From contig CANQEG010000002.1 in assembly GCA_947594705.1 (NCBI GenBank), positions 1-33,735 on the forward strand: a stretch of DNA of 33,735 nt, in the 5' to 3' direction. Source of the DNA: an uncultured Bacilli bacterium. GTDB lineage: Bacteria > Bacillota_I > Bacilli_A > RF39 > UBA660. This document shows, piece after piece, positions 411 through 33,318 of the stretch (within the stretch, counting starts at the first letter, position 1; each line of letters begins with the position of its first letter). Made by a program: the position numbers and the translations under genes. Under the pieces are notes generated by a model. The model did not search any database and was not told where the DNA came from. It worked only from the letters and a program-made list of their open reading frames with translations.

Positions 411-3167
411 ATGAAAGAAAAAAATAAAATTTTGAAAGGATTTCAAAAACTCCGTTTCAAAACGACTGCATTTTTTTTGGGAGCCTCTCTTTTATCGACA
501 AGTTTTACCAGTTTATTTCCTACGATGAAAGCTTATGCGATGGAAAAAGATAGCATGGAAGCATCTTTGGAGAAAAAAAGTAAGGTTATTTTGGCAGGTT
601 CATCTGAGCAAAGTCTTCGCTCAGATGTTGAGGCGCCTCAACATATAATAATAAATATTATCACCTTACCGAATTTAGATGGAACTTATACGGAAATTGT
701 AACTAAGCAAAATCCTGATACATTGGAAATAGAAGAAGAGAAAACGGTGAAACCTTGCGAATTTGGTCAATGGGTCTATCAGAAAGAAACCAATCAAGAT
801 ATACGGACTTGTTCTATTACGGGGTATCAAGAGGTAAGAGAACATGTTCATCAAAACGTATTGTTCAATCGTGATGATGTTTATGAATATCAAAAATGTC
901 TTGTTTGTAATGAAATAAGTAAAGTACCACATCATTATATGGTAAATACCTTCTTAGATGGTACGACTATTTTAACGTGTAAACATTGTGGAAATAATTT
1001 TGATTTTTTAAAGGCAGATATGAATCAAGTTTATCAAAATGCTTTATTACAAGGAATTCAAACGGTTCATACACCTTTTACTTATGAAAATAAAGTGTTT
1101 TTAAAAAGTGATGCTTATTTTGAATATTGGAAAGATACTGCTACCAATGAAATTTTTAGTGTTGCCCATCAATTAGAAGTTTCGCAATCAGAAAATACGA
1201 CACTTTCAAAATGTTTAAATCCTTCTTGTGGTTATCAAAAAAGTGCTTCTAATACTCATCAACATACGGGGACTACTTTTGTTTCGAAAAATGAAATGAA
1301 TGATGTTCTTACTTGTGAATTATGTCATGAACCTTATGAAGATAGTCATGATTATGAATTTAGAGTGAATCCTGACCAAAGTGTTCAACTTATTTGTACA
1401 AAATGTAATCATAGTTTAGATGTAGAGCAAGTAAGAAATGGCAATTTAAATTCGAATGAACAAAAATTAGTACCAAGTAAAGGTTCTGGAGGTGGCTCTG
1501 GTCGTGGAGGCGGAGGTTCTTCAGGCGGCGGTGGTGGAAGCGGAAGCTCTCATAAACATACCCATAATTATACTGTTTTGACGCAAGTGGATGATACTTA
1601 TGAATATTGGAGCTGTGAAAAAGATGGGGATGTTACCAAAATTCCACATCAATTTGCTACGCAAGAAACAGATAAAGAAATTATCACTTATTGTAAGAAT
1701 AAAGGTTGTACTTATCGGAAAGTAGATTTCAAAGAAATACATGATTATAACCGTTATTTAGGAAACTCAGGAAATCAAGAAGTTTGGGGATGTGCAACGT
1801 GTGATAAAACAGTTTTCAAAGATCATAATTTAGGACCTAAACAAATTGATAGAGATACTTTTGAAGAATATCAAAAATGTGAAACACCGGGTTGTGATTA
1901 TGAAATTAGAAAAGAACATGAGCATGATTACTCTATATTACTTCATTGTGATGGAGTTACTGAAGAAAGAGAATGTTCTGGTTGTGGAAAAAAGAAGACA
2001 ATCGAACATATACATCAATTGGGTAAAGAAACAATTGATAGAGAAACGCATGAAGTAGTGAAAAAGTGTGAAACAGCAGGCTGCAATTATGAAGAAAGAA
2101 AAGAGCATGAACATAATTTTTCTAAATTTGTAAGTTGTGATGGAACAAATGAAGTTTATGAATGTCCTGATTGTGGAAAAACAAATACTATTTTACATGA
2201 ACATAAATTGGGAGAAACTTATCAAGAAGATGTTACTTATGATTATTTAAGAGATTGTGAAACACCGGGTTGTGAGTATGTCGAAAGAACTCCTCATTCT
2301 ACAAAACATGAATATCATTTAGATAGTTATGATGAATATTCGGAGACAATGAAATGTGTGTGCGGTAATAGTTATACAAGAGGACATACTTGGAATGAAG
2401 GAACAAGGTTAGAAAGTGGCGAATATTATCAAGAATGTGAAACTTGTGATGCAACAAGAAATTATCACGATCATATTGTTGGAGATCGAGAATATGTTCC
2501 TTTAAAAAATGAAGAAGGATGTTATAAATATATTTATAATTGTAAGATTTGTGGAGAATATGTAACAGAAGATCCACCAGTGCAACATGTGTGGGATGAA
2601 GAAGATGGCATTAAACAGTGTATAAGATGTCGTTATACTGTGTATACCAATCAGGCTTCAGAAATCAATAATATAGAATTAATGCAAGATATTCCGTTAG
2701 AAGATGAAGTTATCATTGATGAAGATGATTTTGAAATTGAAGAATTAGAAGAAGATGTAACAGAAACATTTACTGAAAAAGAAGACATCAAAGAACCGGA
2801 AGAAAAAGAAATAGAAGAAAAGATGGAAGAACCTGAAGATAGTAGCAATGATTTTATAGAAGTAGAAGAAGATGAAATAATTCCTGAAGATGACGATTTT
2901 GAAATTGAAGATTGGAATCAAGATACTGAATCTTTGGAAGAGGAAGATGATTTTCTAATAGAAGATTTCGAAGAAGAATTTGAAGCAGAAGTATCAGAAG
3001 AGGATAATGAAGATGAAATTATTTTTGAAGAATGGGATTTAGAAGAAGAACAACAAGAAAATGCCAAAGAAGAGTTAAAAGAAATTCTTGAAATGGTTTT
3101 ATTTGAAAAAGAAACTCGTAAACAAACATCAACTCTTGTATTAGAAAAAGAAAGAAAAGGGATGTAA
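411..3167 (+). CDS. Secreted Cys/His-rich modular protein with a Gly/Ser linker and a polyacidic C-terminal tail (unknown family)
   Basis: - Start: ATG 411 lies 9 nt after AGAGG; the TTG at 402 in the ORF track abuts the SD.
- Signal peptide: K-rich n-region, hydrophobic core, AYA|ME cleavage-type site.
- Cys content: about 38 Cys by my count, mostly in CX2C/CX4C pairs, each followed by an HxH-aromatic motif (HEHDY, HIHQL, HEHNF, HEHKL and others).
- Linker: GSGGGSGRGGGGSSGGGGGSGSS at nt 1481-1550.
- Tail: the last ~170 aa are dominated by D/E, with repeated DDF(E/L)IE-like motifs.
- No LPXTG or C-terminal TM seen. Confidence 0.8.
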   Translation: MKEKNKILKGFQKLRFKTTAFFLGASLLSTSFTSLFPTMKAYAMEKDSMEASLEKKSKVILAGSSEQSLRSDVEAPQHIIINIITLPNLDGTYTEIVTKQNPDTLEIEEEKTVKPCEFGQWVYQKETNQDIRTCSITGYQEVREHVHQNVLFNRDDVYEYQKCLVCNEISKVPHHYMVNTFLDGTTILTCKHCGNNFDFLKADMNQVYQNALLQGIQTVHTPFTYENKVFLKSDAYFEYWKDTATNEIFSVAHQLEVSQSENTTLSKCLNPSCGYQKSASNTHQHTGTTFVSKNEMNDVLTCELCHEPYEDSHDYEFRVNPDQSVQLICTKCNHSLDVEQVRNGNLNSNEQKLVPSKGSGGGSGRGGGGSSGGGGGSGSSHKHTHNYTVLTQVDDTYEYWSCEKDGDVTKIPHQFATQETDKEIITYCKNKGCTYRKVDFKEIHDYNRYLGNSGNQEVWGCATCDKTVFKDHNLGPKQIDRDTFEEYQKCETPGCDYEIRKEHEHDYSILLHCDGVTEERECSGCGKKKTIEHIHQLGKETIDRETHEVVKKCETAGCNYEERKEHEHNFSKFVSCDGTNEVYECPDCGKTNTILHEHKLGETYQEDVTYDYLRDCETPGCEYVERTPHSTKHEYHLDSYDEYSETMKCVCGNSYTRGHTWNEGTRLESGEYYQECETCDATRNYHDHIVGDREYVPLKNEEGCYKYIYNCKICGEYVTEDPPVQHVWDEEDGIKQCIRCRYTVYTNQASEINNIELMQDIPLEDEVIIDEDDFEIEELEEDVTETFTEKEDIKEPEEKEIEEKMEEPEDSSNDFIEVEEDEIIPEDDDFEIEDWNQDTESLEEEDDFLIEDFEEEFEAEVSEEDNEDEIIFEEWDLEEEQQENAKEELKEILEMVLFEKETRKQTSTLVLEKERKGM
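1848..2225 (+). repeat. Two tandem 189-nt (63-aa) coding repeats inside the Cys/His-rich gene, with a degenerate third copy following
   Basis: IDRDTFEEYQKCETPGCDYEIRKEHEHDYS...CSGCGKKKTIEHIHQLG aligns with IDRETHEVVKKCETAGCNYEERKEHEHNFS...CPDCGKTNTILHEHKLG. The exact 20-mer TGTGAAACACCGGGTTGTGA occurs at 1878-1897 and again at 2256-2275. Confidence 0.85.
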
Positions 3168-5028: not shown

Positions 5029-7788
5029 ATGGAAAAAAATGTGAAAAATGAAGAACAAGAAGAAAAAGAACATAAATTAGAAAAAACATTGATTCGAATT
5101 ATTATTTTAATTATCATAATTCTTTTACTTATTGTGGGTTGTAGTTGTACTTCTAAATTGATTGGAAAGATAGGAAGTTTTTTTGCTAATGAAGGAGAAT
5201 TTCCTATAGATGGAAGTAGTGATGAAGAAGTTATTTTAAATCAAAATTTAAGATTTTATTTAGATAATTATGAAATGTATTTTAGTGATAGTAATGGAAA
5301 ACTTGCTTATTATTATGAAAATATAATTCCAAATGGATTTACTTGTTCTACGAGTGATGCCAATATTGCTACTTGTTATGTAAAAGATAATTATGTTGTT
5401 ATTTTACCGAAAAGTGTTGGAGAGTTTGATGTTTTTTTAGAAACAAAAACGAATGGTTATATTTACCGAGCGAAATCTCATGTTGTTATTCATGATAGTA
5501 ATCGTTATATTACTTTGTCTAGTAAAGGTGGAACAATTGATTTAAAAAAAGGAAAAGAAAAAGTTATTTCGGTAACATTGGTTGGTTTAGAAGGAAAAAT
5601 TTCAGTCACTGTAGATGACTCTTCTATCGCGGATGCTTGGTATGAAAATGGAGTTTTAAAAGTTGTTGGAAAAAAGAAGGGGAGTACCAATGTAAATGTA
5701 TCGGTAACATATGAAGGAAAAACTTATACAGCAACTTATCAAGTAAGAGTGACTGAAACACAAGAAAATACATTAAAAAGTTTAACTTTTTCTGGAGGAG
5801 ATTTACATTTTTCCTCTAATCGTTATCATTATGCTATTTCTGTTTCAAGTAAAACTACCCATGTTACTTTTGAAGAAACGTTAAGTGATAAAAATGCTAA
5901 AACAGAATTTTATTGGAATGGAGAAAAAGTAGATTCTTTAAAAGATTTAGAATTAAAAAACGGAAATAATAAATTAGAAATTGTAGTAAAGGGTGATGAT
6001 GGAAGTACAACAACTTATGAAGTAGATGTTTACAAAGAAACTTCTCATAATACACTTGATAGTTTAAAACCAAGTACAGGAGTGTTATCGCCTAATTTTC
6101 AAGAAAATATTTTATGGTATACGTTAGATGTCGATTATAAAACAAATCATTTAGATGTGTTCTCTTCTTTTCATGATGTTTCTAATGTAAAATATTTTGT
6201 AAATGGAAAAGAAGTAGATTCTTTAAAGGATGTTGTTCTTTCTTATGGTGATACAGATATTTATATTCAAGTAACTGGTGATGATGGAAGTATAAGAGAA
6301 TATCATATTACTGTGCATCGTAAAAAAAGAGAAGTTCTATTTGATTCTAATCATTATGATGTGTTTATAGATTCTAATGAAAAAGCAGTTCCATTTCAAA
6401 TTGTTGAAGATGAACAATTATTAAATTCCAAAGATTATGATTTAAAAAAAGAAGATATTACGATAGATGGTTATGTTGGTGATTATACGGTAAAAAATGG
6501 AGTAGTATATTTTTCTCCAGATATTTCTATGAGTGGAAAAACAGTGAAAATGAAAGTAAAATATGGTGATGAAGAAATTGAAGTTGAAGTGACTTTTAAA
6601 AATCGAGATTATTATTTTGCATCACAAAGTTCTTCTTATTATTTAGAATTATTAGAAGAGGAAGATGAAAAAACAGCTAGTTTTGTTTTTCCAAATAATT
6701 TATTTACGGGAAAAGTGAAATCTAAAAAATTGGATGATGGTACAATTCGAATTTATGATGAAGACCATCCTGATATTTATGTCGATATCATTCCTAAAAA
6801 TGAAAATGCCAAATCTTTAAAAGATGGAGATATTCATGTTCATTTAGAAGATACTTCTTCTTTAGTAGTTGATGTAGATGTTGAAAATGCAGGAGATTAT
6901 GATTTCCATGTAAAAGCAAGTGTTTTTGAAGAAAATATAGGAGAAACTGATGTTTCGTTACATGTTGTAAAAACATATCATTTTACTATTTTAGCTAATG
7001 GTGGTTTCTTTGATGAATTTACAAATGAAGGGTATATTACTAAGTATGAATTTTCTGTGAAAAGCAATGAAACATTTGATTTAAGTCAAATAAAAGCATA
7101 TAAAACTGCGGATGAAACAAACTGTTTATACTATGTTCTAAAAGGTTATAGTATTAGTAGTAATGGAGATATTTTATATTCTCCTTCTGATAAGATTACA
7201 CTCACTCAAAATACTACTTTGTATGCAATATATAAAGAGGAAGAACAAGAAAAAGTAGAATTGCAGGAAAAGAAAAAATTATATTTGACTGATGTAGATT
7301 TATTTGTGAATAAAGATTTTGATGAGCAAAAAGTAATTTATCCGGGAGCAACGGGTTATTATATTATGGATTTTCCAAATGAAAGTAAAGAAGAAATTAC
7401 CATCACGGGAATTACTTTAGAAGAAGATACAATTTGTTATGATGAAGGTTGTTTAAATATGGGTTATTTCTTTAAAAATCAAGAGGATTATCATTATTTT
7501 GGTTCAGTAGGAACGTATGATGTTTTAAATACACATCCTAATACGTTAAAAACTTCTAGTCATACAAAAAATGAAATAGAGTTTCCAAAAGAACAATATG
7601 TAAAAGTTGCAGCTGGAGAAACAGCGAGATTTTTCTTAGGGTGGCAATGGGTAGATGATGGTCTTCATGATGTGTTAGATACTAAGATTGGAAATAATAC
7701 ATTGGTGAAAGATACATATGAACTTACAGTAAGTATTGATTTTTATACCCAGAAAACCAATTGTAGTTTGGACAGTGATAGCCCATGA
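5029..7788 (+). CDS. Large membrane-anchored multi-domain surface protein (Big_2-like, 2x cadherin-like beta-sandwich, Listeria-Bacteroides repeat, C-terminal subunit-like domain)
   Basis: - N-terminus: TM LIRIIILIIIILLLIVGCSC, with a possible lipobox IVGC.
- Ig-like segment: ...VVGKKKGSTNVNVSVTYEGKTYTATYQVRV.
- Two ~95-aa repeats, L(K/D)SL...G.L...Y...V...G....Y.(V/I).V, at nt ~5771-6325.
- Listeria-Bacteroides-type repeat: YHFTILANGG...LYAIYKEE.
- C-terminal ~190 aa share the blocks K(I/V)IxPG(A/T)(S/T)G, (E/G)WxW, LDT and (S/T)IDF with the 4016-4942 product. Confidence 0.75.
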   Translation: MEKNVKNEEQEEKEHKLEKTLIRIIILIIIILLLIVGCSCTSKLIGKIGSFFANEGEFPIDGSSDEEVILNQNLRFYLDNYEMYFSDSNGKLAYYYENIIPNGFTCSTSDANIATCYVKDNYVVILPKSVGEFDVFLETKTNGYIYRAKSHVVIHDSNRYITLSSKGGTIDLKKGKEKVISVTLVGLEGKISVTVDDSSIADAWYENGVLKVVGKKKGSTNVNVSVTYEGKTYTATYQVRVTETQENTLKSLTFSGGDLHFSSNRYHYAISVSSKTTHVTFEETLSDKNAKTEFYWNGEKVDSLKDLELKNGNNKLEIVVKGDDGSTTTYEVDVYKETSHNTLDSLKPSTGVLSPNFQENILWYTLDVDYKTNHLDVFSSFHDVSNVKYFVNGKEVDSLKDVVLSYGDTDIYIQVTGDDGSIREYHITVHRKKREVLFDSNHYDVFIDSNEKAVPFQIVEDEQLLNSKDYDLKKEDITIDGYVGDYTVKNGVVYFSPDISMSGKTVKMKVKYGDEEIEVEVTFKNRDYYFASQSSSYYLELLEEEDEKTASFVFPNNLFTGKVKSKKLDDGTIRIYDEDHPDIYVDIIPKNENAKSLKDGDIHVHLEDTSSLVVDVDVENAGDYDFHVKASVFEENIGETDVSLHVVKTYHFTILANGGFFDEFTNEGYITKYEFSVKSNETFDLSQIKAYKTADETNCLYYVLKGYSISSNGDILYSPSDKITLTQNTTLYAIYKEEEQEKVELQEKKKLYLTDVDLFVNKDFDEQKVIYPGATGYYIMDFPNESKEEITITGITLEEDTICYDEGCLNMGYFFKNQEDYHYFGSVGTYDVLNTHPNTLKTSSHTKNEIEFPKEQYVKVAAGETARFFLGWQWVDDGLHDVLDTKIGNNTLVKDTYELTVSIDFYTQKTNCSLDSDSP

Positions 7789-13380: not shown

Positions 13381-16326
13381 ATGAAGTTAAAAAGCATTCG
13401 AATGAATGGATTTAAGTCATTCGCAGATAAAACCGATTTAGAATTTAAAACGAATATTACGGCTATTGTTGGACCGAATGGCTCTGGGAAAAGTAATATT
13501 GTAGATGCTGTAAAATGGGTGTTGGGAGAACAGTCCGTAAAATCTTTAAGAGGCTCTACTTCGATGAGTGATGTTATTTTTGCAGGAAGTGAATCAAGAG
13601 ATGCGTTAAAAAGAGCTGAGGTAGCTTTAACGTTTGATAATACAGAACATTTTTTAAATACAGATTTGGTTGATGTGGAAGTAAAAAGAGTTCTTTATCA
13701 AAATGGAGAAAATGAGTATTTTATTAATAATCATAAAGTTCGTTTAAAAGATATTACGACTCTTTTTTTAGATAGTGGTATTGGGAATGATACATTTCAT
13801 ATTATTAGTCAAGGAAGTATTGAAGCAATTGTTAATTCTAAACCGATAGATAGAAGAGTGATTATAGAAGGTGCATCCAAAGTTCTGAAATATAAAACAA
13901 GAAAACAGGAAAGTGTAAAGAAGTTAGAGAAAACGAAAGATAATTTAGAAAAAGTTACTTTAGTAACGGATGAACTTTCGCTTAGTGTTTTGCCATTAAA
14001 AGAACAAAGTGAAATCGCCAAAAAATATTTATCGTTTAAAGAAGAATTAGAAAATTTAGAAATTTCTTTGACTACATTTGATATTTCACAAATACATGAA
14101 ACTTATCATCAAACTATGGCCGAAATGAAAGAATTGGAAAAGAAAAAAGAAAAGTTAGAACTTACTTTTTCTAAAGAGAATGTTGATACCGAAAACTTTC
14201 ATTTAGAATTACTGAAAATAGAAGAAAGATACAACGATTTAAATAAAGAATATATGGAAGTTTTGGAAAAAATTTCTAAATTACAAAGTGAAAAAACTTT
14301 ATTTCAAGAACGGCAAAAGTATGTAATTGATGAAGAAAAGGTAAATGAAAGTTTGTTGTCGTTTAAAGAACAAGAATTGGCTTTGCAAAAAGAATTAGAA
14401 TTAATTCAAAATGATTTAGAAGAAATACGGAAAAATATCAATGAAGAAAAAAATAAACTTCGAGATGAAGAAGAATCGTTTAGTATGCTTTCCATTAAGA
14501 AGAAACATATTGATGTAGAATTAGAACAAACATTACAAAATCAATTTTCTTTACAAAATAAGATTCGATTATTAGAAGCAAATTTAGAACAAGATATGAG
14601 TTTACCAGTGGCTGTAAAAAATATTTTAAATCATCCTCGGTTAACTGGTATTTGTGGAACGATAGGAAAATTATTAGAAGTAGTAGATTATTATGCAACG
14701 GCGATAGATGTTGCTTTAGGGGCATCCGCTAATTTTATTGTTTCGGAAAGTGAAACTGATGCGAAAAATGCGATTGAATATTTAAAGAATAATCGATTGG
14801 GAAGAGCTACTTTTTTTCCATTAAATGTCATTCGTTCTCGAAAGATACCTAATACAGAATTGGCAAGTATTGAAAACGAAAAAGGTTTTCTAGGAGTTGC
14901 CAGTGATTTAATTCAATATGATTCTAAATATCAAAATATTATGGAAAATCAATTAGGAAATGTTTTAGTGGTAGAAGATTTTGATACATTGCAACGATTA
15001 GGTAATAAGCTTTCTCATAAATATCGAATTGTGACTTTAGATGGTGAGATTATGCATGCTGGAGGTTCGTTGACAGGAGGTTTTTTAAAACCTCAAAATA
15101 GTACTTTAAAAGAGAAACAAGAATTATCTCATTATAAAGAAGAACTAGAAAATAATTTGATTTCGACAAATAGTTTACAAGAAAAAAAGAAAGAAATGGA
15201 AAGTGAAAAAGAAGAACTTTCTGAAAGAATTCAAGATTTGGAAAGAAAAATTTTACGATTAGAAGAGGGAGAAAGTCAAAAAGATGCCCAAAGAAAAACA
15301 CTTGAAGAAAAATTACAAGAAGCTAGGACAAATTTAAAAAATGCTGATTCTTTAAAAAAGGGTAAATTAGAAGAAGATTTTATGCAACTATTAGAACAAA
15401 TCAAAGAGGAAGAAGTAAAAAAAGAATTATGTGAAAAAGAAATGGAAACCTTAAAAACAAAAAAAAGTGATCTTTCTTCGCAAATTAATGAATTAGAAAA
15501 AAATAATCGAGAGAAGAGTAGTGCTTATCATTCTGTAGAGATGGCCATTAAAGATCATGAAGTAGAAATTGGTAAATTAGATACGAAAATGGATTATTTA
15601 TTGGGGGTTTTAAGCGATGAATATCATATTACATATGAAAAAGCAAAGAATGAATATACTTTAGATTTGGAACCAGAGTTGGCTCGAATGCGAGTTACGA
15701 GTTTAAAAAAATCTATGCAAGAGTTGGGTGAAGTGAATCTTGGTAGTATTTCTGAATATGATCGTGTAAAAGATCGTTATGAATTTTTAATGAATCAAAA
15801 AACTGATTTAGAACATGCGATGGAAGAACTTTATCATATGATTGAAGAAATGGATTCCATTATGGAAGAAAGACTTACAAATGCGTTTCAAAAAATTCAA
15901 AAAGAGTTTGAAATTACTTTTAAAAAATTATTTCAAGGTGGAAGGGGAATGTTAAAACTTACTGACCCTGAACATATTTTAGAAACGGGAATTGAAATTA
16001 TTGCGGAACCACCTGGAAAAAAACTTAATAATATTCAGTTGTTAAGTGGAGGAGAGAAAACTTTAACAGCAATTGCGTTATTATTTGCTATATTAAATGT
16101 GTATCCTGTTCCATTCTGTATTTTAGATGAGGTAGAAGCAGCATTAGATGAGGCGAATGTCGATATGTTTGGTTCTTATTTACAAGAACAACAAGACAAA
16201 AGTGAATTTATTTTAATTACTCATAAAAAAAGAACTATGGAATATGCCACGACTTTATATGGAATTACCATGCAAGAACAGGGTGTTTCTAAAATAGTAA
16301 GTGTTTCTTTAGAAGGAACAAAATAA
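13381..16326 (+). CDS. smc: Chromosome partition protein SMC
   Basis: N-terminal Walker A GPNGSGKSN, long coiled coils, a hinge, and C-terminal LSGGEKTLTAIALLFA...ILDEVEAALD. Confidence 0.95.
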   Translation: MKLKSIRMNGFKSFADKTDLEFKTNITAIVGPNGSGKSNIVDAVKWVLGEQSVKSLRGSTSMSDVIFAGSESRDALKRAEVALTFDNTEHFLNTDLVDVEVKRVLYQNGENEYFINNHKVRLKDITTLFLDSGIGNDTFHIISQGSIEAIVNSKPIDRRVIIEGASKVLKYKTRKQESVKKLEKTKDNLEKVTLVTDELSLSVLPLKEQSEIAKKYLSFKEELENLEISLTTFDISQIHETYHQTMAEMKELEKKKEKLELTFSKENVDTENFHLELLKIEERYNDLNKEYMEVLEKISKLQSEKTLFQERQKYVIDEEKVNESLLSFKEQELALQKELELIQNDLEEIRKNINEEKNKLRDEEESFSMLSIKKKHIDVELEQTLQNQFSLQNKIRLLEANLEQDMSLPVAVKNILNHPRLTGICGTIGKLLEVVDYYATAIDVALGASANFIVSESETDAKNAIEYLKNNRLGRATFFPLNVIRSRKIPNTELASIENEKGFLGVASDLIQYDSKYQNIMENQLGNVLVVEDFDTLQRLGNKLSHKYRIVTLDGEIMHAGGSLTGGFLKPQNSTLKEKQELSHYKEELENNLISTNSLQEKKKEMESEKEELSERIQDLERKILRLEEGESQKDAQRKTLEEKLQEARTNLKNADSLKKGKLEEDFMQLLEQIKEEEVKKELCEKEMETLKTKKSDLSSQINELEKNNREKSSAYHSVEMAIKDHEVEIGKLDTKMDYLLGVLSDEYHITYEKAKNEYTLDLEPELARMRVTSLKKSMQELGEVNLGSISEYDRVKDRYEFLMNQKTDLEHAMEELYHMIEEMDSIMEERLTNAFQKIQKEFEITFKKLFQGGRGMLKLTDPEHILETGIEIIAEPPGKKLNNIQLLSGGEKTLTAIALLFAILNVYPVPFCILDEVEAALDEANVDMFGSYLQEQQDKSEFILITHKKRTMEYATTLYGITMQEQGVSKIVSVSLEGTK

Positions 16327-16339
16327 AATGTAAATGTAC

Positions 16340-16368
16340 TTGTATCATGTAGCTAAATATTATATAAT
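16340..16368 (+). promoter_or_regulatory. Sigma-A promoter of RNA unit A
   Basis: TTGTAT, 17-nt spacer, TATAAT. Confidence 0.6.
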
Positions 16369-16374
16369 GATTTT

Positions 16375-16786
16375 AAGATACATTTGATGTTAGGTGTTGT
16401 TACTCTCAGTTCATAAATTATTTAAAATTTAATTGAATAGAGAGGAGTGGTCCTAGATGGAGAATTATGGAATATTTGATTATTCTAATAATACTAATTT
16501 TAGTATTACACAAATTCTACAGCAAAGACTAAACATTTTTGATTTTTATATAACAAAAAGACAGCACCTTATACAACTTAGATTGGTGCTGTCCATCCAA
16601 ACAAAAATGGACTGAGATAACACCTAACATGAGAAAATCAGATGTATCTATAAAATCGAACTATGTATTAGTCCATAGTACATAGTATGAAAGATTTCTC
16701 TTTCTTGTATTCATTGTAGCAAAGAAATAGAGATTTTTCAAGTTTAAAATCACAATATACTTCTTTTTGCTAAGGAAGTTTTTTTA
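16375..16786 (+). ncRNA. Unit A: ~410-nt structured transcript of unknown class (ncRNA or fold-back small-ORF mRNA)
   Basis: The 5' arm (16376-16410) pairs with 16609-16649 in an interrupted ~30-bp helix. Further elements are the hairpin ACTATGTA/TACATAGT (16660-16686), an imperfect hairpin (16689-16739), and a terminator CTTCTT..AAGGAAG plus T7 (16758-16786). Confidence 0.5.
16457..16615 (+). CDS. Candidate small ORF (52 aa) inside RNA unit A
   Basis: GAGGAG SD 9 nt before the ATG. Product: MENYGIFDYSNNTNFSITQILQQRLNIFDFYITKRQHLIQLRLVLSIQTKMD. The stop codon lies inside the 3' arm of the closing helix. The ORF is weakly conserved in unit B. Confidence 0.25.
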   Translation: MENYGIFDYSNNTNFSITQILQQRLNIFDFYITKRQHLIQLRLVLSIQTKMD

Positions 16787-16787
16787 T

Positions 16788-16816
16788 TTGTAATACGTAG
16801 ATAATTGTTATATAAT
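16788..16816 (+). promoter_or_regulatory. Sigma-A promoter of RNA unit B
   Basis: TTGTAA, 17-nt spacer, TATAAT. Confidence 0.6.
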
Positions 16817-16822
16817 GATTTT

Positions 16823-17229
16823 AAGATACATTTGATGTTAGGTGTTGTTACTCTCAGTTCATAGATTTTTTTGAATTTAATTGAATAGAGAGGGGATGGT
16901 CCTAGATGGAGAATTATGGAATATTTGATTATTCTAATAATACTAATTTTAGTACTACACAAATTCTACAGCAAAGACTAAGCATTTTTAATTTTTACAA
17001 AACAAAAAGACAGCACCTTATACAACTTGGTTGGTGCTGCTCAATCTAATAATGGACTGAGATAACACCTAACATGTGAAAATCAGATGTATCTCGTAAA
17101 ATCAAACTATGTATTAGTCCTAGTACATAGTATGAAAGATTTCTCTTTCTTGTATACATTGTAACAAAGAAATAGAGATTTTTCAAGTTTAAAATCACAA
17201 TGTACTTCTTTTTACTAAGGAAGTTTTTT
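16823..17229 (+). ncRNA. Unit B: second copy of the structured transcript
   Basis: Same helices as unit A: arms at 16824-16858 and 17054-17094, and terminator at 17204-17229. The terminator abuts the stop codon of the convergent 17231-18979 gene. Confidence 0.5.
16906..17049 (+). CDS. Candidate small ORF (47 aa) inside RNA unit B
   Basis: The first 41 codons are shared with unit A, with 4 non-synonymous and 1 synonymous change. A 1-nt deletion then gives a different C-terminus (..IQLGWCCSI). Confidence 0.2.
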   Translation: MENYGIFDYSNNTNFSTTQILQQRLSIFNFYKTKRQHLIQLGWCCSI

Positions 17230-17230
17230 A

Positions 17231-18979
17231 TTATGGTGTTAGAACAATACGAAAACCAACACCTTTATACCCTCCTCCATGACCATAATAAAAATTACCA
17301 AGACCTGAAAGTGTACCACGATTAAATCCAGCATCACCACCTCTAGTAAACCATGGAAAACCTTTATGCACAAATAAAGCTTTATCTAAAAAAAAACTAC
17401 TTGTTTCACCAGAGAAAGGTCCTAATTCCTTGGTCGCATCTCCTAAATGTCCTCTTTGATATGTTGATCGACTTGTATTATAATCATATAAATCATAATA
17501 TTTAGTAGAAGGCAACTGCATTCCATCTTTTTTTTCACCTACTATATTTGTATATAGTCCGTTAAAACCAGAATTATTAGTTTCATCGGATCCACTTGCT
17601 GGATTAGAATTATTGTTACTCCCTTGCATTACGCCCATTACATATTCATTTGCTCCACCTGACATATCATAAATACCAGAATAATTATTAGTTGTACTAG
17701 CAACAACACTGGAAGAATTATTATAATTCCAGCCATATTTTCCTTCTTCATTTATATCTATATTTTCTTCATATTTATTACATTCTTCATTTGTTTCAGT
17801 ATAACCACAAGTTGGATCAAAGTTAGCAGAATACCCAGTAATATAATTTCCATTATTATTTATTCTAAGCTCAGTACAAGAAGTTTCATTACATCTTCCG
17901 TAAATTGAGTAAGTCAAATAAAAAACTGCACCCCATTCTGAATTTTTCATCATATGGCTTTCTAATTCTCTTAAATAATTATAAGAAGCATAGAAGGCAT
18001 TTCCAACGGAAATATTTCCCCAACTATACATATTTGGTTTTATGACAATTTTGTCTGATTCTTGTGAGTTTTGTTGGGCGCTATTTGTATCAATAGCATC
18101 AGCATAACCAGTTTCAAATTTACCTACCCACATTCCATTACTAGTAAACGATAAAAATGCTGGATGTGTAAGCCATGAATTTTGTGTGCTTCCAGATGAT
18201 ATTCCTTCATTTTTACTTTCAAATTTAATAAAATACGGAGTAATTACATCAGAGTTTCCTTTATTAACATACAAATTATATGCTTCTTCATCATCTTTTA
18301 ATTGATATCTATATCTGGGAATCCATACCAAGTAGGATTCTATATCACCTTCTTTTATTTCATCTCCTGGTTGATAATTATCTACTTTACCATCTTTAAG
18401 TATCACGGCATTGGCCCATTTCTTATTTGTATAACTATACCAAGGGTCGTCTGTATCAGTAATATCTGCTTTTATTACCTTTCCTCCATAGTTATTTTCA
18501 GCATTTGTATATTCTGTAACATCACTTGGCTTTTCTGTATCACTTATTTTTACGGGAATAAGTCTTCCATTTCCTAAATCTGGTATTGCTCCATTTAATA
18601 TTTCTTCTTTGTATATTTGTTTAAACTTTAAATAGCATTTTGTTTTGGTGGTACTTATATTCTTTAACTCAACACTCCATCTTTCATCATTCCATGAAAT
18701 TAAATCACCATTATCACAATAACTTGTACTGGTATCTAAGGAATACCCACTTTCTTTACTTGGTACATCTTTTTGTAAAACATCATCTATATATACCATG
18801 AATCTAATGTCGCCTTCATCTTGTATATTTCCTTCAATCATATTTTGGTTTTCGTTTACCTGAAATATAGCAAAAGTTCTATATAAAATTACGCCAGTGA
18901 TTAATAATATACAACTTATTGTAAATAAAATGATTCCTACTTTTTTAGGATTTTTTTCTTTAAATCTTTTTAATTCCAT
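17231..18979 (-). CDS. Membrane-anchored extracellular protein with an FGE-sulfatase (SUMF1/C-type-lectin-like) domain, paralog 1
   Basis: N-terminal TM. Blocks [42 protein letters not shown] (compare the GxYDMxGNVWEW motif of FGE-like domains), RGGDAG, and a C-terminal GFRIVLTP. Confidence 0.65.
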   Translation of the reverse strand: MELKRFKEKNPKKVGIILFTISCILLITGVILYRTFAIFQVNENQNMIEGNIQDEGDIRFMVYIDDVLQKDVPSKESGYSLDTSTSYCDNGDLISWNDERWSVELKNISTTKTKCYLKFKQIYKEEILNGAIPDLGNGRLIPVKISDTEKPSDVTEYTNAENNYGGKVIKADITDTDDPWYSYTNKKWANAVILKDGKVDNYQPGDEIKEGDIESYLVWIPRYRYQLKDDEEAYNLYVNKGNSDVITPYFIKFESKNEGISSGSTQNSWLTHPAFLSFTSNGMWVGKFETGYADAIDTNSAQQNSQESDKIVIKPNMYSWGNISVGNAFYASYNYLRELESHMMKNSEWGAVFYLTYSIYGRCNETSCTELRINNNGNYITGYSANFDPTCGYTETNEECNKYEENIDINEEGKYGWNYNNSSSVVASTTNNYSGIYDMSGGANEYVMGVMQGSNNNSNPASGSDETNNSGFNGLYTNIVGEKKDGMQLPSTKYYDLYDYNTSRSTYQRGHLGDATKELGPFSGETSSFFLDKALFVHKGFPWFTRGGDAGFNRGTLSGLGNFYYGHGGGYKGVGFRIVLTP

Positions 18980-19009: not shown

Positions 19010-19660
19010 AGTTTATCACATATACCCCCCCCCCGAGTCAAGTACCACATAATAAATTATGTGGCTTGCTCTCAGGTGCTGAAAGCACATTCCGTGAGTA
19101 AACTCACCCCACTATTCGGAATGTCTCTTCGTATTCATCTTCTTGACTTTCTATATATTTCTTTATCATTTCCTTGTTTATGTCCCCGACACTTCGGCAA
19201 AAATACCCTATTGCCCACATATGTTGTCCCCAATATCTTTTTCTTAACTCCTTATATTCACTCATCATTATTCGTGATGTTTTTCCTTTCAAATGTTGCA
19301 CTATTTTTGATACACTTATGTTCGGCGGGCATGACAACATGAGATGTATATGGTCTTTTCCTATACTTCCTTTTATTATATTTATGTCCATTGCTTGACA
19401 ACTTTGTCTTATTAATTCTCGACATCTTTCTGCTATTTTTCCACTTAATATTCTATATCGATATTTGGTTGTCCATACTATATGATACTCTATATCATAT
19501 CTTACATGTTCTGATTTTCTCATTTCCCCCGCCTCACTTGGCTTTATATTCTACCACTATTTTTGCCTTTGCGGCAATAAATTACCTCTAAATCCTAAAG
19601 GATCTACGTGCTAAAGCACGTGGCCTGAACCTAATTGCCGTAAACGGGGGTGGTCAACGA
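19010..19660 (-). mobile_element. IS200/IS605-family insertion sequence (IS200-like, tnpA only); ends approximate
   Basis: A Y1 transposase ORF is flanked by hairpin-rich ends. On one side: CCACATAAT-aa-ATTATGTGG, GTGCT-gaa-AGCAC and GTGAG-taaa-CTCAC at ~19035-19100. On the other: ACGTGCT-aa-AGCACGT at ~19596-19611. No terminal inverted repeats, as expected for IS200. Confidence 0.7.
19104..19523 (-). CDS. tnpA: IS200/IS605-family transposase TnpA (HUH Y1)
   Basis: YHIVWTTKYRYRIL, HUH motif DHIHLML, Tyr-containing C-terminal helix (KKYIESQ). The 139-aa size is typical. Confidence 0.9.
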   Translation of the reverse strand: MRKSEHVRYDIEYHIVWTTKYRYRILSGKIAERCRELIRQSCQAMDINIIKGSIGKDHIHLMLSCPPNISVSKIVQHLKGKTSRIMMSEYKELRKRYWGQHMWAIGYFCRSVGDINKEMIKKYIESQEDEYEETFRIVG

Positions 19661-31593: not shown

Positions 31594-33318
31594 TTATGGA
31601 GCAAGAACAATACGGAAAGCTTTGTCTTGACCATCTTCATAATAATAAACACCAAATGTACTAATTCCTGCACCACTTCCATTTGTGGCATCTCCACCTC
31701 TTACAATTGATGGAGCATAGGCCGCTATAAAATACGATTGATCAGCAAACCAACTACTGCTATATCTTATTATTTCTGAATTATTATATTGAACTTGATA
31801 AAATGGCCCTAATTCTTTCGTGGCATCTCCTAAATGTCCTCTTTGATATTGTTGATTTGAGGTACTATAATCATATAAATCATAATATTTATTACTTGGC
31901 CAATCATAACCATCGGTTTTTTCTAGTCCCATATCTTCACACTCTGTACAAGTATATGGTCCATTAAAACCAGAATTAAATTCTTTACTATAACCACTTG
32001 CAGGCTTCTTATTTTCTAATGAAGACTCTAAAAAACCCATAACATGCTCCCAAACACCTCCGGCCATATCATAAATTCCTGAATAATTTCCAGTAGTACT
32101 TGCTGCAATACTTTGCGGATTAAAATAATTCCAACTAATTTCTCCATCTAAGCCCGATTTTATACTAATATCATATTTATTACAATCTAAATTTTTTCCA
32201 GACCATTCACAAGAAGGAATAAAATTAGCAGAATTTCCTGTAACAAATCTTACATTATTAACTCTTACTTCTGTACAAGTATTTTTTTCACATCTCCCAT
32301 ATTGAGAATATGTAAGATAAAATATCGCACCCCATTCTATATTTTTCATCATATGACTTTCTAATTCTCGTTTGTAATCATAACTTGTATAAAAATCATT
32401 CGCAATTGTATTCCAACGCCAGCTATATACGTTCGGTTTTATAATAATTTTACTAGAATCTTTAACATTTTTTTGAGCACCTTCTACGGTCCAATTATCC
32501 ACATTATTTATCAATGCATTTACATTTTCATTTTGATTATATCCTGTTTCAAACTTTCCAACCCAAAAACCATTACTATTAAAACTATCAAAGGCTGGAT
32601 GTGATAACCATTTATTCTGATTATCTTCTGTTCTTAGTGTATTTTTGCTTTCAAATATAATTTCATATGGACTATCTTGTCCTAAATTTTTTATAAAACT
32701 ACTATCTTGTATGATTCCTATATTTTTCACTTCCATATATTTATTGTAAGTTTCTTCACTTTCTTTTAATTGATATCTATATCTTGGGATCCACACAAAA
32801 TAGCTTTCAATGTTTTCTTCTTTAATTTCTTCATTATTTTTATATTCTTTTGTTTTGTCTAATAAAATTACGGCATTTGCCCATTGTTTGTTTTCATAAC
32901 TATACCAATTACTACTTAAATCTGCTTTTCTTACTACTCCATGATCATCTATTGTTACTGGTATCAAATCATTTTTAATTTCAGGTAAGGCTCCTTGCAA
33001 TATTTCTTCAGCATATTCTTTTTTAAAATATAAAGTACAATTACTTTTGGTATTTTTTAAATTGTTTATACTTGCATTCCAGTTGTAATAGTCCCAAAAA
33101 ATATTCACTCCATTGGTACAAAAACTTTTTTCTGTATCAAAAGAATATTCTCCTTTTGTAGGTATAGAAGTTTGTTTTTCTCCATCAACAACATAAGCAA
33201 AGGTAATAGTTTCAAATTTATTATCATTTAATTTTATTGATTCTTTCTTTGAAAAATTTAGAAAAAAAAGAAGACTGAAACAAATAATTACAACACTCAT
33301 TAAAATTTTCTTTTTCAT
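31594..33318 (-). CDS. Membrane-anchored FGE-sulfatase (SUMF1-like) domain protein, paralog 2
   Basis: Collinear with the 17231-18979 product: [123 protein letters not shown]. Confidence 0.65.

Follow-up and report, generated by a model that had tools for sequence, protein, structure and literature searches.

The 33,735-nucleotide stretch of DNA analysed here (the window, from an uncultured Bacilli bacterium, contig CANQEG010000002.1) carries two head-to-tail copies of one unit directly after the smc gene. As judged from the sequence, each unit is probably (a probability of about 75%) a self-contained type I toxin-antitoxin (TA) module of a new family. Type I modules are defined by an mRNA of 150-400 nt which encodes a small, usually hydrophobic protein of 20-60 amino acids, and their hallmarks are pairing of the Shine-Dalgarno (SD) sequence with an anti-SD sequence, a long-distance interaction that joins the mRNA's 5' and 3' ends, an antisense RNA overlapping the 3' end in Gram-positive bacteria, tandem repeats and hydrophobic peptides (PMC8594479). 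All of these hallmarks are seen here in silico and no named family that was tested fits, which is why the units are filed as a new family of the type I class. A length of about 411 nt is predicted for the mRNA in the window and of 236-297 nt in relatives, and the encoded peptide has 21 amino acids with a core hydropathy of about 4. The predicted antisense gene has a promoter in nine of nine units, terminators with compensated changes and perfect complementarity to the 3' untranslated region (UTR) of the mRNA. Premature translation would be blocked by a closing helix, present and covarying in the seven full units, and by an anti-SD tract which pairs with a strong SD sequence. The family is new to the Rfam, Pfam, NCBIfam and PADLOC libraries searched and, rather than a new class of RNA, most likely represents a selfish or stress element of a well-known type. 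The initial annotation had proposed a structured RNA of no recognisable class, a description which fails because it overlooked both a 21-codon open reading frame (ORF) and an antisense gene on the minus strand.

Between the stop codon of smc (16326) and that of a convergent gene for a protein of 582 amino acids (17231), the two units take up the whole intergenic space; both comprise a promoter, a 5'-3' closing helix and a weak terminator:

16337-16786: unit A
16785-17229: unit B

The tandem head-to-tail arrangement after smc had been recognised at first annotation and stands, with a direct-repeat spacing of 445-449 bp. The accompanying hand count of about 28 differences between the copies was too low, as a global alignment (16340-16786 against 16788-17229) gives 38 differing columns out of 450, 32 of which sit downstream of the predicted transcript start.

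The putative toxin is encoded by a short ORF in each copy:

16467-16532, plus strand: toxin ORF of unit A, 21 amino acids, MEYLIILIILILVLHKFYSKD
16916-16981, plus strand: toxin ORF of unit B, 21 amino acids, peptide identical to that of unit A

The sole nucleotide difference between the two ORFs, at 16506, is a synonymous change in a Leu codon. The peptide follows the pattern MEY, 11 aliphatic residues, then x-K-[FY]-x-x-x-D. A type I toxin mRNA had at first been dismissed because the peptide was not hydrophobic, but this was judged on the wrong ORF; the core of the 21-residue peptide has a mean Kyte-Doolittle hydropathy of 4.15 in the window, with a range of 3.7-4.15 over the units. A search of the full-text literature with the N-terminal hexamers of the peptides gave irrelevant matches only. 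Another 21-codon ORF with a hydrophobic run (MLLFMIVIVILLCLVKVEQLI) lies at 5480-5545 on the plus strand, inside an ORF of 919 amino acids (5029-7788), and is likely to have arisen by chance in AT-rich sequence.

Relatives of the units were sought by a pattern scan of one genome per GTDB species, in which codons 1-18 were constrained to M-[DE]-Y, 11 codons with T at the second position and x-K-[FY]-Y. This gave six loci (L001-L006), all in metagenome-assembled genomes (MAGs) labelled 'uncultured Bacilli bacterium' from rabbit-gut ('Lapin') samples. All six share two features which the pattern left free, D at codon 21 and a stop at codon 22. Homologous flanks are found around the SD region in six of six loci and at the 5' arm, the 3' arm and the antisense promoter in five; the DNA of L001 ends upstream of the SD region on one side and just after the ORF on the other. 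Extra tandem units in L004 and L005 were detected by blastn, which brings the total to seven further units in five MAGs of uncultured Bacilli from the rabbit gut. Among them, the six in which the ORF is intact share its 21 codons and hydrophobic core, the five that have two arms retain the closing helix, and the antisense promoter is retained in the six whose 3' side is covered. L005a was picked up by blastn alone; it has an intact 21-codon hydrophobic ORF outside the search pattern (MEYLIMLVVIILVLNKYDHKD) and is an unbiased confirmation of this ORF. The second tandem units of these two loci are decayed, with toxin promoter and 5' arm lost and antisense promoter and hairpins kept:

L004, 5290-5535: second unit L004b
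L005, 4556-4850: second unit L005b

The toxin remnant of L004b is frameshifted (ATGGAGTTATTTTTGTTGTAA, with GVIFVVIIIVMHNHFTKQK* in the next frame), and the antisense terminator of L005b is degenerate. The same or looser peptide patterns matched nothing in the metagenome contigs of the Joint Genome Institute or in viral contigs, and blastn in 'distant' mode with unit A gave no match in plasmids and phages. The chromosomal context of the units differs between genomes; in L002, a tRNA gene (1337-1410, minus strand) lies immediately upstream of the unit.

Across the nine units, the length of 21 codons and the hydrophobic core are conserved at a nucleotide identity of only 70-76%. Codon differences are 178 synonymous to 231 non-synonymous in the frame of the 21-residue peptide, compared to 58:324 in the second frame and 22:365 in the 52-codon frame discussed below, and 134 of the 231 amino-acid differences exchange one hydrophobic residue for another. 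A proximal SD precedes this ORF in every unit. These observations bear on the proposal of a new class of structured non-coding RNA transcribed from the plus strand, in which the small ORFs are incidental. The exceptionally stable fold, the covarying helices and the lack of a Rfam match would suit such an RNA, which is nevertheless very improbable given an ORF that keeps its length, start, stop and hydrophobicity at this level of divergence, a synonymous bias confined to its frame and an SD in front of it in each case.

The strongest SD-like element of the units stands before a different start codon, out of frame with the toxin ATG:

16439-16453, plus strand: extended SD-like element of unit A, AGAGAGGAGUGGUCC, 9 nt before the upstream ATG at 16457 and conserved in all units
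16457-16615, plus strand: upstream ORF of unit A, 52 codons, in frame +1 relative to the toxin ATG and ending at the TGA in GGACTGA of the 3' arm
16906-17049, plus strand: upstream ORF of unit B, frameshifted, 47 codons

The element, AGAAAGGGGUGGUCC in L004 for example, lies 7-9 nt before this non-toxin ATG and is nearly a full complement of the 16S rRNA 3' tail. The upstream ORFs of 52 and 47 codons exist as initially annotated, but the coding frame that is conserved is a different one. Wherever it is present, the upstream ORF is in frame +1 with respect to the toxin ATG, at offsets of -10, -13, -13, -13, -16 and -25. It is open for 51-52 codons up to the TGA in GGACUGA of the 3' arm in unit A, L003, L004a and L005a, with spacers of 76, 70, 73 and 70 nt, which are all 1 modulo 3, so that indels are multiples of three; it is truncated or absent in four of the nine units (unit B, L006, L002 and L005b). 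It is also the only ORF recorded for the region in a collection of 5.8 billion proteins, where the 52-residue sequence matched itself alone.

The real product might be sought in the 52-residue peptide started at the upstream ATG (16457-16615), with the 21-codon frame as a by-product, as its extended SD stands at 7-9 nt and its frame is kept open in four units by indels in multiples of three. This is hardly credible: the peptide lacks conservation (22 synonymous and 365 non-synonymous differences, in agreement with the lack of protein-level constraint seen at first annotation), the frame is broken or absent in unit B, L002, L005b and L006, and neither a relative among the 5.8 billion proteins nor a family match was obtained. 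If the 52-codon ORF is functional, it is the act of translation that matters and not the peptide, which is compatible with a type I module. It may serve as a leader like that of mok or Ldr, as a decoy start or as a standby site.

The toxin mRNA predicted by the type I reading starts at a plus-strand promoter and is folded back on itself:

16340-16368, plus strand: toxin promoter of unit A, TTGTAT-17-TATAAT, read from sequence, predicted start A16376
16788-16816, plus strand: toxin promoter of unit B, TTGTAA-17-TATAAT, predicted start A16824
16376-16786, plus strand: predicted toxin mRNA of unit A, about 411 nt, from the 5' arm to a weak hairpin and U7, ends predicted
16376-16414, plus strand: 5' arm of unit A, with helix H1 at 16376-16388, H2 at 16389-16399, H3 at 16404-16414 and the anti-SD CUCUC at 16403-16407
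16607-16649, plus strand: 3' arm of unit A, with H3 at 16607-16617, H2 at 16618-16628, the 8-nt bulge at 16629-16636 and H1 at 16637-16649
16824-17229, plus strand: predicted toxin mRNA of unit B, with the 5' arm at 16824-16862, the 3' arm at 17052-17094 and a weak terminator at 17204-17229

Both promoters are present as first described. A consensus promoter scan picks up only that of unit B; the promoter of unit A goes unlisted because TTGTAT matches TTGACA at three of six positions. The -10 hexamer and the start position directly before the AGAUA of the 5' arm are conserved in L002-L006.

The 411-nt RNA of unit A has a minimum free energy (MFE) of -116.4 kcal/mol, compared to -71.5 +/- 5.0 for dinucleotide shuffles (z = -8.9). 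Folding bears out the interrupted closing helix in three blocks with an 8-nt bulge that had been drawn by hand: in unit A, H1 has 13 bp with one G-U pair, H2 has 10-11 bp and H3 about 11 bp, and the arm-arm duplex amounts to -44.6 kcal/mol in unit A and -44.3 kcal/mol in unit B. The two hairpins described downstream, at 16660-16686 and 16689-16739, are both real, the first with 11 bp including one G-U pair. The opposite strand of the second, a long imperfect hairpin, carries the promoter of the antisense RNA together with its 5' hairpin. The statement that differences between the copies avoid paired positions holds for H1, H2, H3 and the named hairpin stems, but two of them weaken the base of a minus-strand terminator helix which had gone unrecognised.

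Each unit does end in a hairpin and U-run, as had been noted, though these plus-strand terminators are weak (8 bp; -6.4 kcal/mol in unit A, 16759-16779, and -6.0 kcal/mol in unit B; followed by U7 and U6). A consensus terminator scan called neither of them, and they are absent from the relatives, in which the 3' arm is immediately followed by a T-run. The mRNA probably ends there, giving transcripts of 236-297 nt. This T-run is absent in the window, where a separate weak terminator lies beyond the antisense promoter; the mRNAs of the window would therefore be about 410 nt long and span the whole antisense gene.

The closing helix is shared by all units that are complete. Per-unit duplex folds give a 5'-3' duplex of -38 to -45 kcal/mol in seven of seven full units, always with the same architecture of H1, bulge, H2, internal loop and H3, and the helix is found in each of the seven single-sequence MFE structures as well as in the RNAalifold consensus of the five closer units. 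In a block-wise structural alignment of the seven full units, restricted to paired positions, standard pairs make up 96.6% of the cells, and both partners change in 14 of 31 pairs. None of 500 shuffles reaches the observed values, and sliding the partner by 1-3 columns lowers pairing to 21-43%. The constraint at the RNA level proposed at first annotation is thus upheld, with the helix kept in all seven full units by compensatory changes.

The arms had also been read as terminal inverted repeats, 35-40 bp long, of an element resembling a miniature inverted-repeat transposable element (MITE). Such elements are marked by inverted repeats at their termini, a target-site duplication and numerous dispersed copies. 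Inverted repeats do flank about 220 bp, units occur in several genomic contexts, and a gene for an IS200-like transposase lies 2 kb away. Homology between genomes passes both arms, however: it takes in the toxin promoter at one end and, at the other, continues for up to 110 nt after the 3' arm as far as the antisense promoter. The G-U pairs and the 8-nt bulge within the arms make sense only in RNA. The units also carry a conserved ORF, were seen at one or two loci per MAG with no dispersed copies in the window, and match no plasmid, phage or viral contig. A mobile element of this kind is left with a negligible probability. A retron, 6S RNA, tmRNA or riboswitch was discarded as well, as there is no Rfam signal, no reverse transcriptase gene and no plus-strand gene downstream.

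The second gene of the proposed module lies on the minus strand:

16713-16741, minus strand: antitoxin promoter of unit A, TTGAAA (16741-16736), 17-nt spacer ending in TGC, TACAAT (16718-16713)
17158-17186, minus strand: antitoxin promoter of unit B, TTGAAA, 17-nt spacer ending in TGT, TACAAT
16554-16706, minus strand: predicted antitoxin RNA of unit A, about 153 nt, with the 5' hairpin (16704-16689), hairpin 2 (16686-16660), the main stem-loop (16649-16618) and the terminator in this order
16593-16585 and 16568-16560, minus strand: stems of the G+C-rich terminator hairpin of the antisense RNA of unit A, with the U-run at 16559-16555
17003-17151, minus strand: predicted antitoxin RNA of unit B, about 149 nt, with a terminator base 1-2 bp shorter than that of unit A

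A promoter of the form TTGNNN-16/17-TGnTAnnAT occurs at the homologous place in nine of nine units. Its extended -10 motif has four occurrences on both strands of the whole 33.7-kb window, two of which are these sites. The antisense RNA of unit A folds into four hairpins at -44.9 kcal/mol (z = -4.5). The GAAAGAG...CUUUC hairpin at the 5' end is found in seven of the nine units, the main stem-loop in all nine and the terminator in eight; pairs of the terminator show compensatory changes in a consensus structure drawn from five homologues. As the reverse complement of the 3' arm, the main stem-loop has strands that correspond to H1 and H2 and a loop that corresponds to the bulge. Owing to G-U pairs, it is more stable than its plus-strand mirror in seven of nine units; the exceptions are L005b and L006 (roughly equal), and L006 builds the stem-loop from a different sequence. 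The antisense RNA is a perfect complement of the mRNA 3' UTR including the whole 3' arm and does not cover the toxin ORF, with its terminator in the window ending at least 23 nt past the toxin stop codon.

The bulge and its complementary loop (16629-16636 and 17074-17081 in the window, with homologous bulges in L002-L006) form the most variable segment between units, and the flanking stems are conserved. Such variability fits what one expects of a recognition determinant. The two copies in the window differ at the bulge by one base, A16632 against T17077, a difference which may set cognate specificity between them.

A pyrimidine tract in the 5' arm (CUCUC, CCCUC or CCUC) has two alternative partners in silico, the 3' arm, with which it forms H3, and the strong purine-rich SD. 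In the MFE structure of unit A, the partner of CUCUC is the GAGAG within the strong SD. The hairpin between anti-SD and SD forms in folds of all seven full units once the stretch opposite the antisense RNA is blocked, or before it has been transcribed. Under these conditions, the probability that the strong SD is unpaired drops from 0.36 to 0.22 in unit A, from 0.35 to 0.21 in unit B, from 0.64 to 0.26 in L003 and from 0.63 to 0.20 in L005a, and it is barely altered in L004a, L002 and L006.

Taken together, this would allow a mechanism in which an excess of the peptide, inserted into the membrane, is toxic. The helix at the 5' terminus would stabilise the mRNA and, with the anti-SD (CUCUC or CCCUC) in the 5' arm, keep translation low. 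The hairpin loop of the antisense RNA would first kiss the single-stranded bulge of 6-8 nt, which is its exact complement, and the antisense RNA (100-155 nt) would then zip over the 3' arm. As the antisense RNA is a copy of the 5' arm of the mRNA with an inserted loop, it would displace this arm, and the resulting duplex of about 100-150 bp would be a substrate for RNase III, so that the mRNA decays. The freed 5' arm could re-pair with the strong SD and shut translation, a dual action like that of BsrG/SR4. Confidence in the details of this RNA switch is lower than in the type I reading itself. It is a tentative and rather doubtful step further to propose a three-way switch, in which the antitoxin is a loop-bearing mimic of the 5' arm that reads the bulge, displaces the arm and hands the anti-SD to the ribosome-binding site, and in which an overlapping leader ORF resembling the one in hok/mok, running exactly to the 3' arm, couples ribosome traffic to the opening of the helix.

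A Rfam scan had been recommended at first annotation, and when run at the gathering score on the window and L001-L006 it matched tRNAs only and no type I antitoxin, nor any other existing family. At E <= 10, the region 16200-17400 gave only chance-level matches to unrelated families. The 21-residue peptides and the 52-codon ORF had no match in Pfam, NCBIfam or PADLOC. Four of the 21-residue peptides were also compared with the toxin families Hol_Tox (PF16935, TxpA/BsrG) and Fst_toxin (PF13955), without a match at E <= 10; the positive controls were recovered, with BsrG at 1.8e-8 and TxpA at 1.8e-7 for PF16935 and Fst at 8.7e-5 and PepA1 at 2.8e-5 for PF13955.

The anatomy comes close to several known systems without coinciding with any of those compared. 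As in BsrG/SR4 and TxpA/RatA of B. subtilis, the genes are convergent, the antisense RNA begins beyond the toxin ORF and is perfectly complementary to the mRNA's 3' portion, and the peptide is small and hydrophobic. BsrG and SR4 make contact through their 3' overlap, followed by RNase III-dependent decay and SD sequestration (PMC8309996), and both cleavage of the duplex by RNase III and a tightened SD sequestration of the SR4 type would be expected here (PMC8309996, PMC8594479). The peptide has 21 amino acids, however, compared to 38 and 59 in BsrG and TxpA; the antisense RNA spares the ORF, which it overlaps in those systems (PMC8594479); and the target is the 3' strand of the closing helix, with the antisense RNA mimicking the 5' arm. 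In Fst/RNAII (par) and SprA1/SprA1as, transcripts are also convergent, the host is Gram-positive and the antisense RNA lies off the ORF (PMC8594479). In contrast to the units, contact there is made at the mRNA's 5' end, away from the overlap (PMC8594479), and the present peptides contain neither P nor G, so that the APxxxG motif of Fst is absent.

Among Gram-negative systems, hok/Sok (mok) and Ldr/Rdl resemble the units in the pairing of the extreme 5' and 3' ends of the mRNA and in an upstream frame with a better ribosome-binding site which overlaps the toxin ORF out of frame. They differ in that the lineage here is Gram-positive, the antisense RNA is located at the 3' end and not over the leader and the mok ribosome-binding region, and no Hok or Ldr family match exists; a mok-like role of the upstream ORF, missing or truncated in four of nine units, is only a hypothesis drawn from the analogy. 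AapA1/IsoA1 of Helicobacter pylori likewise involves chromosomal, multi-copy modules, and its small mRNA is described as kept inert by a long-distance 5'-3' interaction and successive SD-sequestering structures (PMC5416894, PMC6733600). There, the antisense RNA lies within the mRNA and over the ORF (PMC8594479), unlike here, where it lies on the 3' arm and off the ORF. With Ibs/Sib of Escherichia coli, the units share a tiny, almost wholly aliphatic toxin, repeated copies and recognition segments which vary between copies; Sib, on the other hand, covers the entire ibs ORF (PMC8594479), the host is Gram-negative and no sequence kinship is detectable.

Several points weigh against a type I module as proposed. 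The two transcripts and their ends are predicted, as are the translation of the ORF and the toxicity of its product. The set of homologues is small, with nine units from about four independent lineages, most of which were found by the pattern. This search pattern forced T at the second position of 11 codons, which inflates the codon-position statistic (13, 3 and 18 variable columns at the first, second and third positions over the nine ORFs); the constant length, the stop position, the C-terminal D and unit L005a are free of this bias. As the covariation alignment was made by hand with the structure as its guide, it leans towards that structure, and most of the double changes come from a single lineage, L006. 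Without L006, four pairs are still compensated: a change of G-C to A-U in H2 of L003 and L004a, and changes of U-A to C-G, A-U to U-A and C-G to U-A in L002. The thermodynamic SD switch is clear in only four of seven units. The proximal SD of the toxin AUG is modest, at a spacing of 4 nt in the window and 6-7 nt in the relatives, and the strong SD serves the out-of-frame upstream AUG. Finally, the hydrophobic run, at 11-12 residues, is short if it is to span a membrane as a helix. This last objection is weakened by IbsC, a toxin of 19 amino acids which retains its toxicity when cut to 15 amino acids with 10 hydrophobic residues (PMC8309996).

From the composition of the peptide, the precedent of the 19-residue IbsC and the decay pattern of the tandem copies, we infer that the peptide is a membrane toxin. 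The same anatomy would also fit a small membrane protein without toxicity under cis-antisense control, modelled on regulators of transporters or sensors, in which the fold-back would serve mRNA stability only. In its favour, the units are chromosomal and stand among housekeeping genes. This alternative is unlikely, though less so than those discussed above. The unit is duplicated in tandem, and L004b and L005b have lost the toxin promoter and the 5' arm and still keep the antisense promoter, with a frameshifted ORF in L004b. The genomic context varies, and the smc locus of the closest relatives has no unit. Duplication, decay and a shifting context are features of selfish TA modules and not of a housekeeping small protein, and several layers of translational repression point in the same direction. 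Tandem duplication with decayed, antitoxin-only copies is the usual life history of type I modules. To our knowledge, the 21-residue peptide would be the shortest type I toxin of Gram-positive bacteria.

A type I module of this kind would add a toxin/antitoxin family missed by the Pfam, NCBIfam, Rfam and PADLOC profiles, in an uncultured gut lineage. It also illustrates how such modules are missed, since a gene of 21 codons is rarely annotated by automated prediction. If true, bulge-loop recognition combined with an antisense RNA that copies the 5' arm and with an arm that contains its own anti-SD could be a template for portable RNA switches. The conserved frame of the upstream ORF gives an opportunity to test leader-ORF control beyond the enterobacterial hok and ldr.

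The position after smc is specific to the lineage of the window. In the closest smc loci (Smc 69% identical; L009, L010, L011 and L012, including the MAG which carries L004), no unit was found downstream of smc; uppS follows about 20 nt after smc (4946-4967 in L009), with hrcA-grpE-dnaK further along. The usual rnc-smc neighbourhood is thus broken in the window, where smc is followed by the two units and then by the convergent gene. The lineage is poorly sampled, with 69% identity being the nearest match of its Smc among the 5.8 billion proteins. Beside this break in synteny, 2 kb from the TA pair, lies the gene for the IS200-like Y1 transposase (19104-19523, minus strand; 139 amino acids; PF01797, E = 1.4e-42).

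The convergent gene itself (17231-18979, minus strand) has a paralogue in the window at 31594-33318 (minus strand). Both belong to a large unnamed family of proteins of about 550-640 amino acids with an N-terminal hydrophobic segment, members of which adjoin TA units in the window and in four of the six related loci (L003, 1-126; L004, 1184-3079; L005, 450-2357; L006, 2980-4740 and 5167-6924). Adjacency of the units to this family as a rule was dropped, as a paralogue in the MAG of L005 (L007, L008) has no neighbouring unit. The family counts more than 6000 relatives and has no Pfam match of its own, and a few longer relatives add a PF13385 domain.

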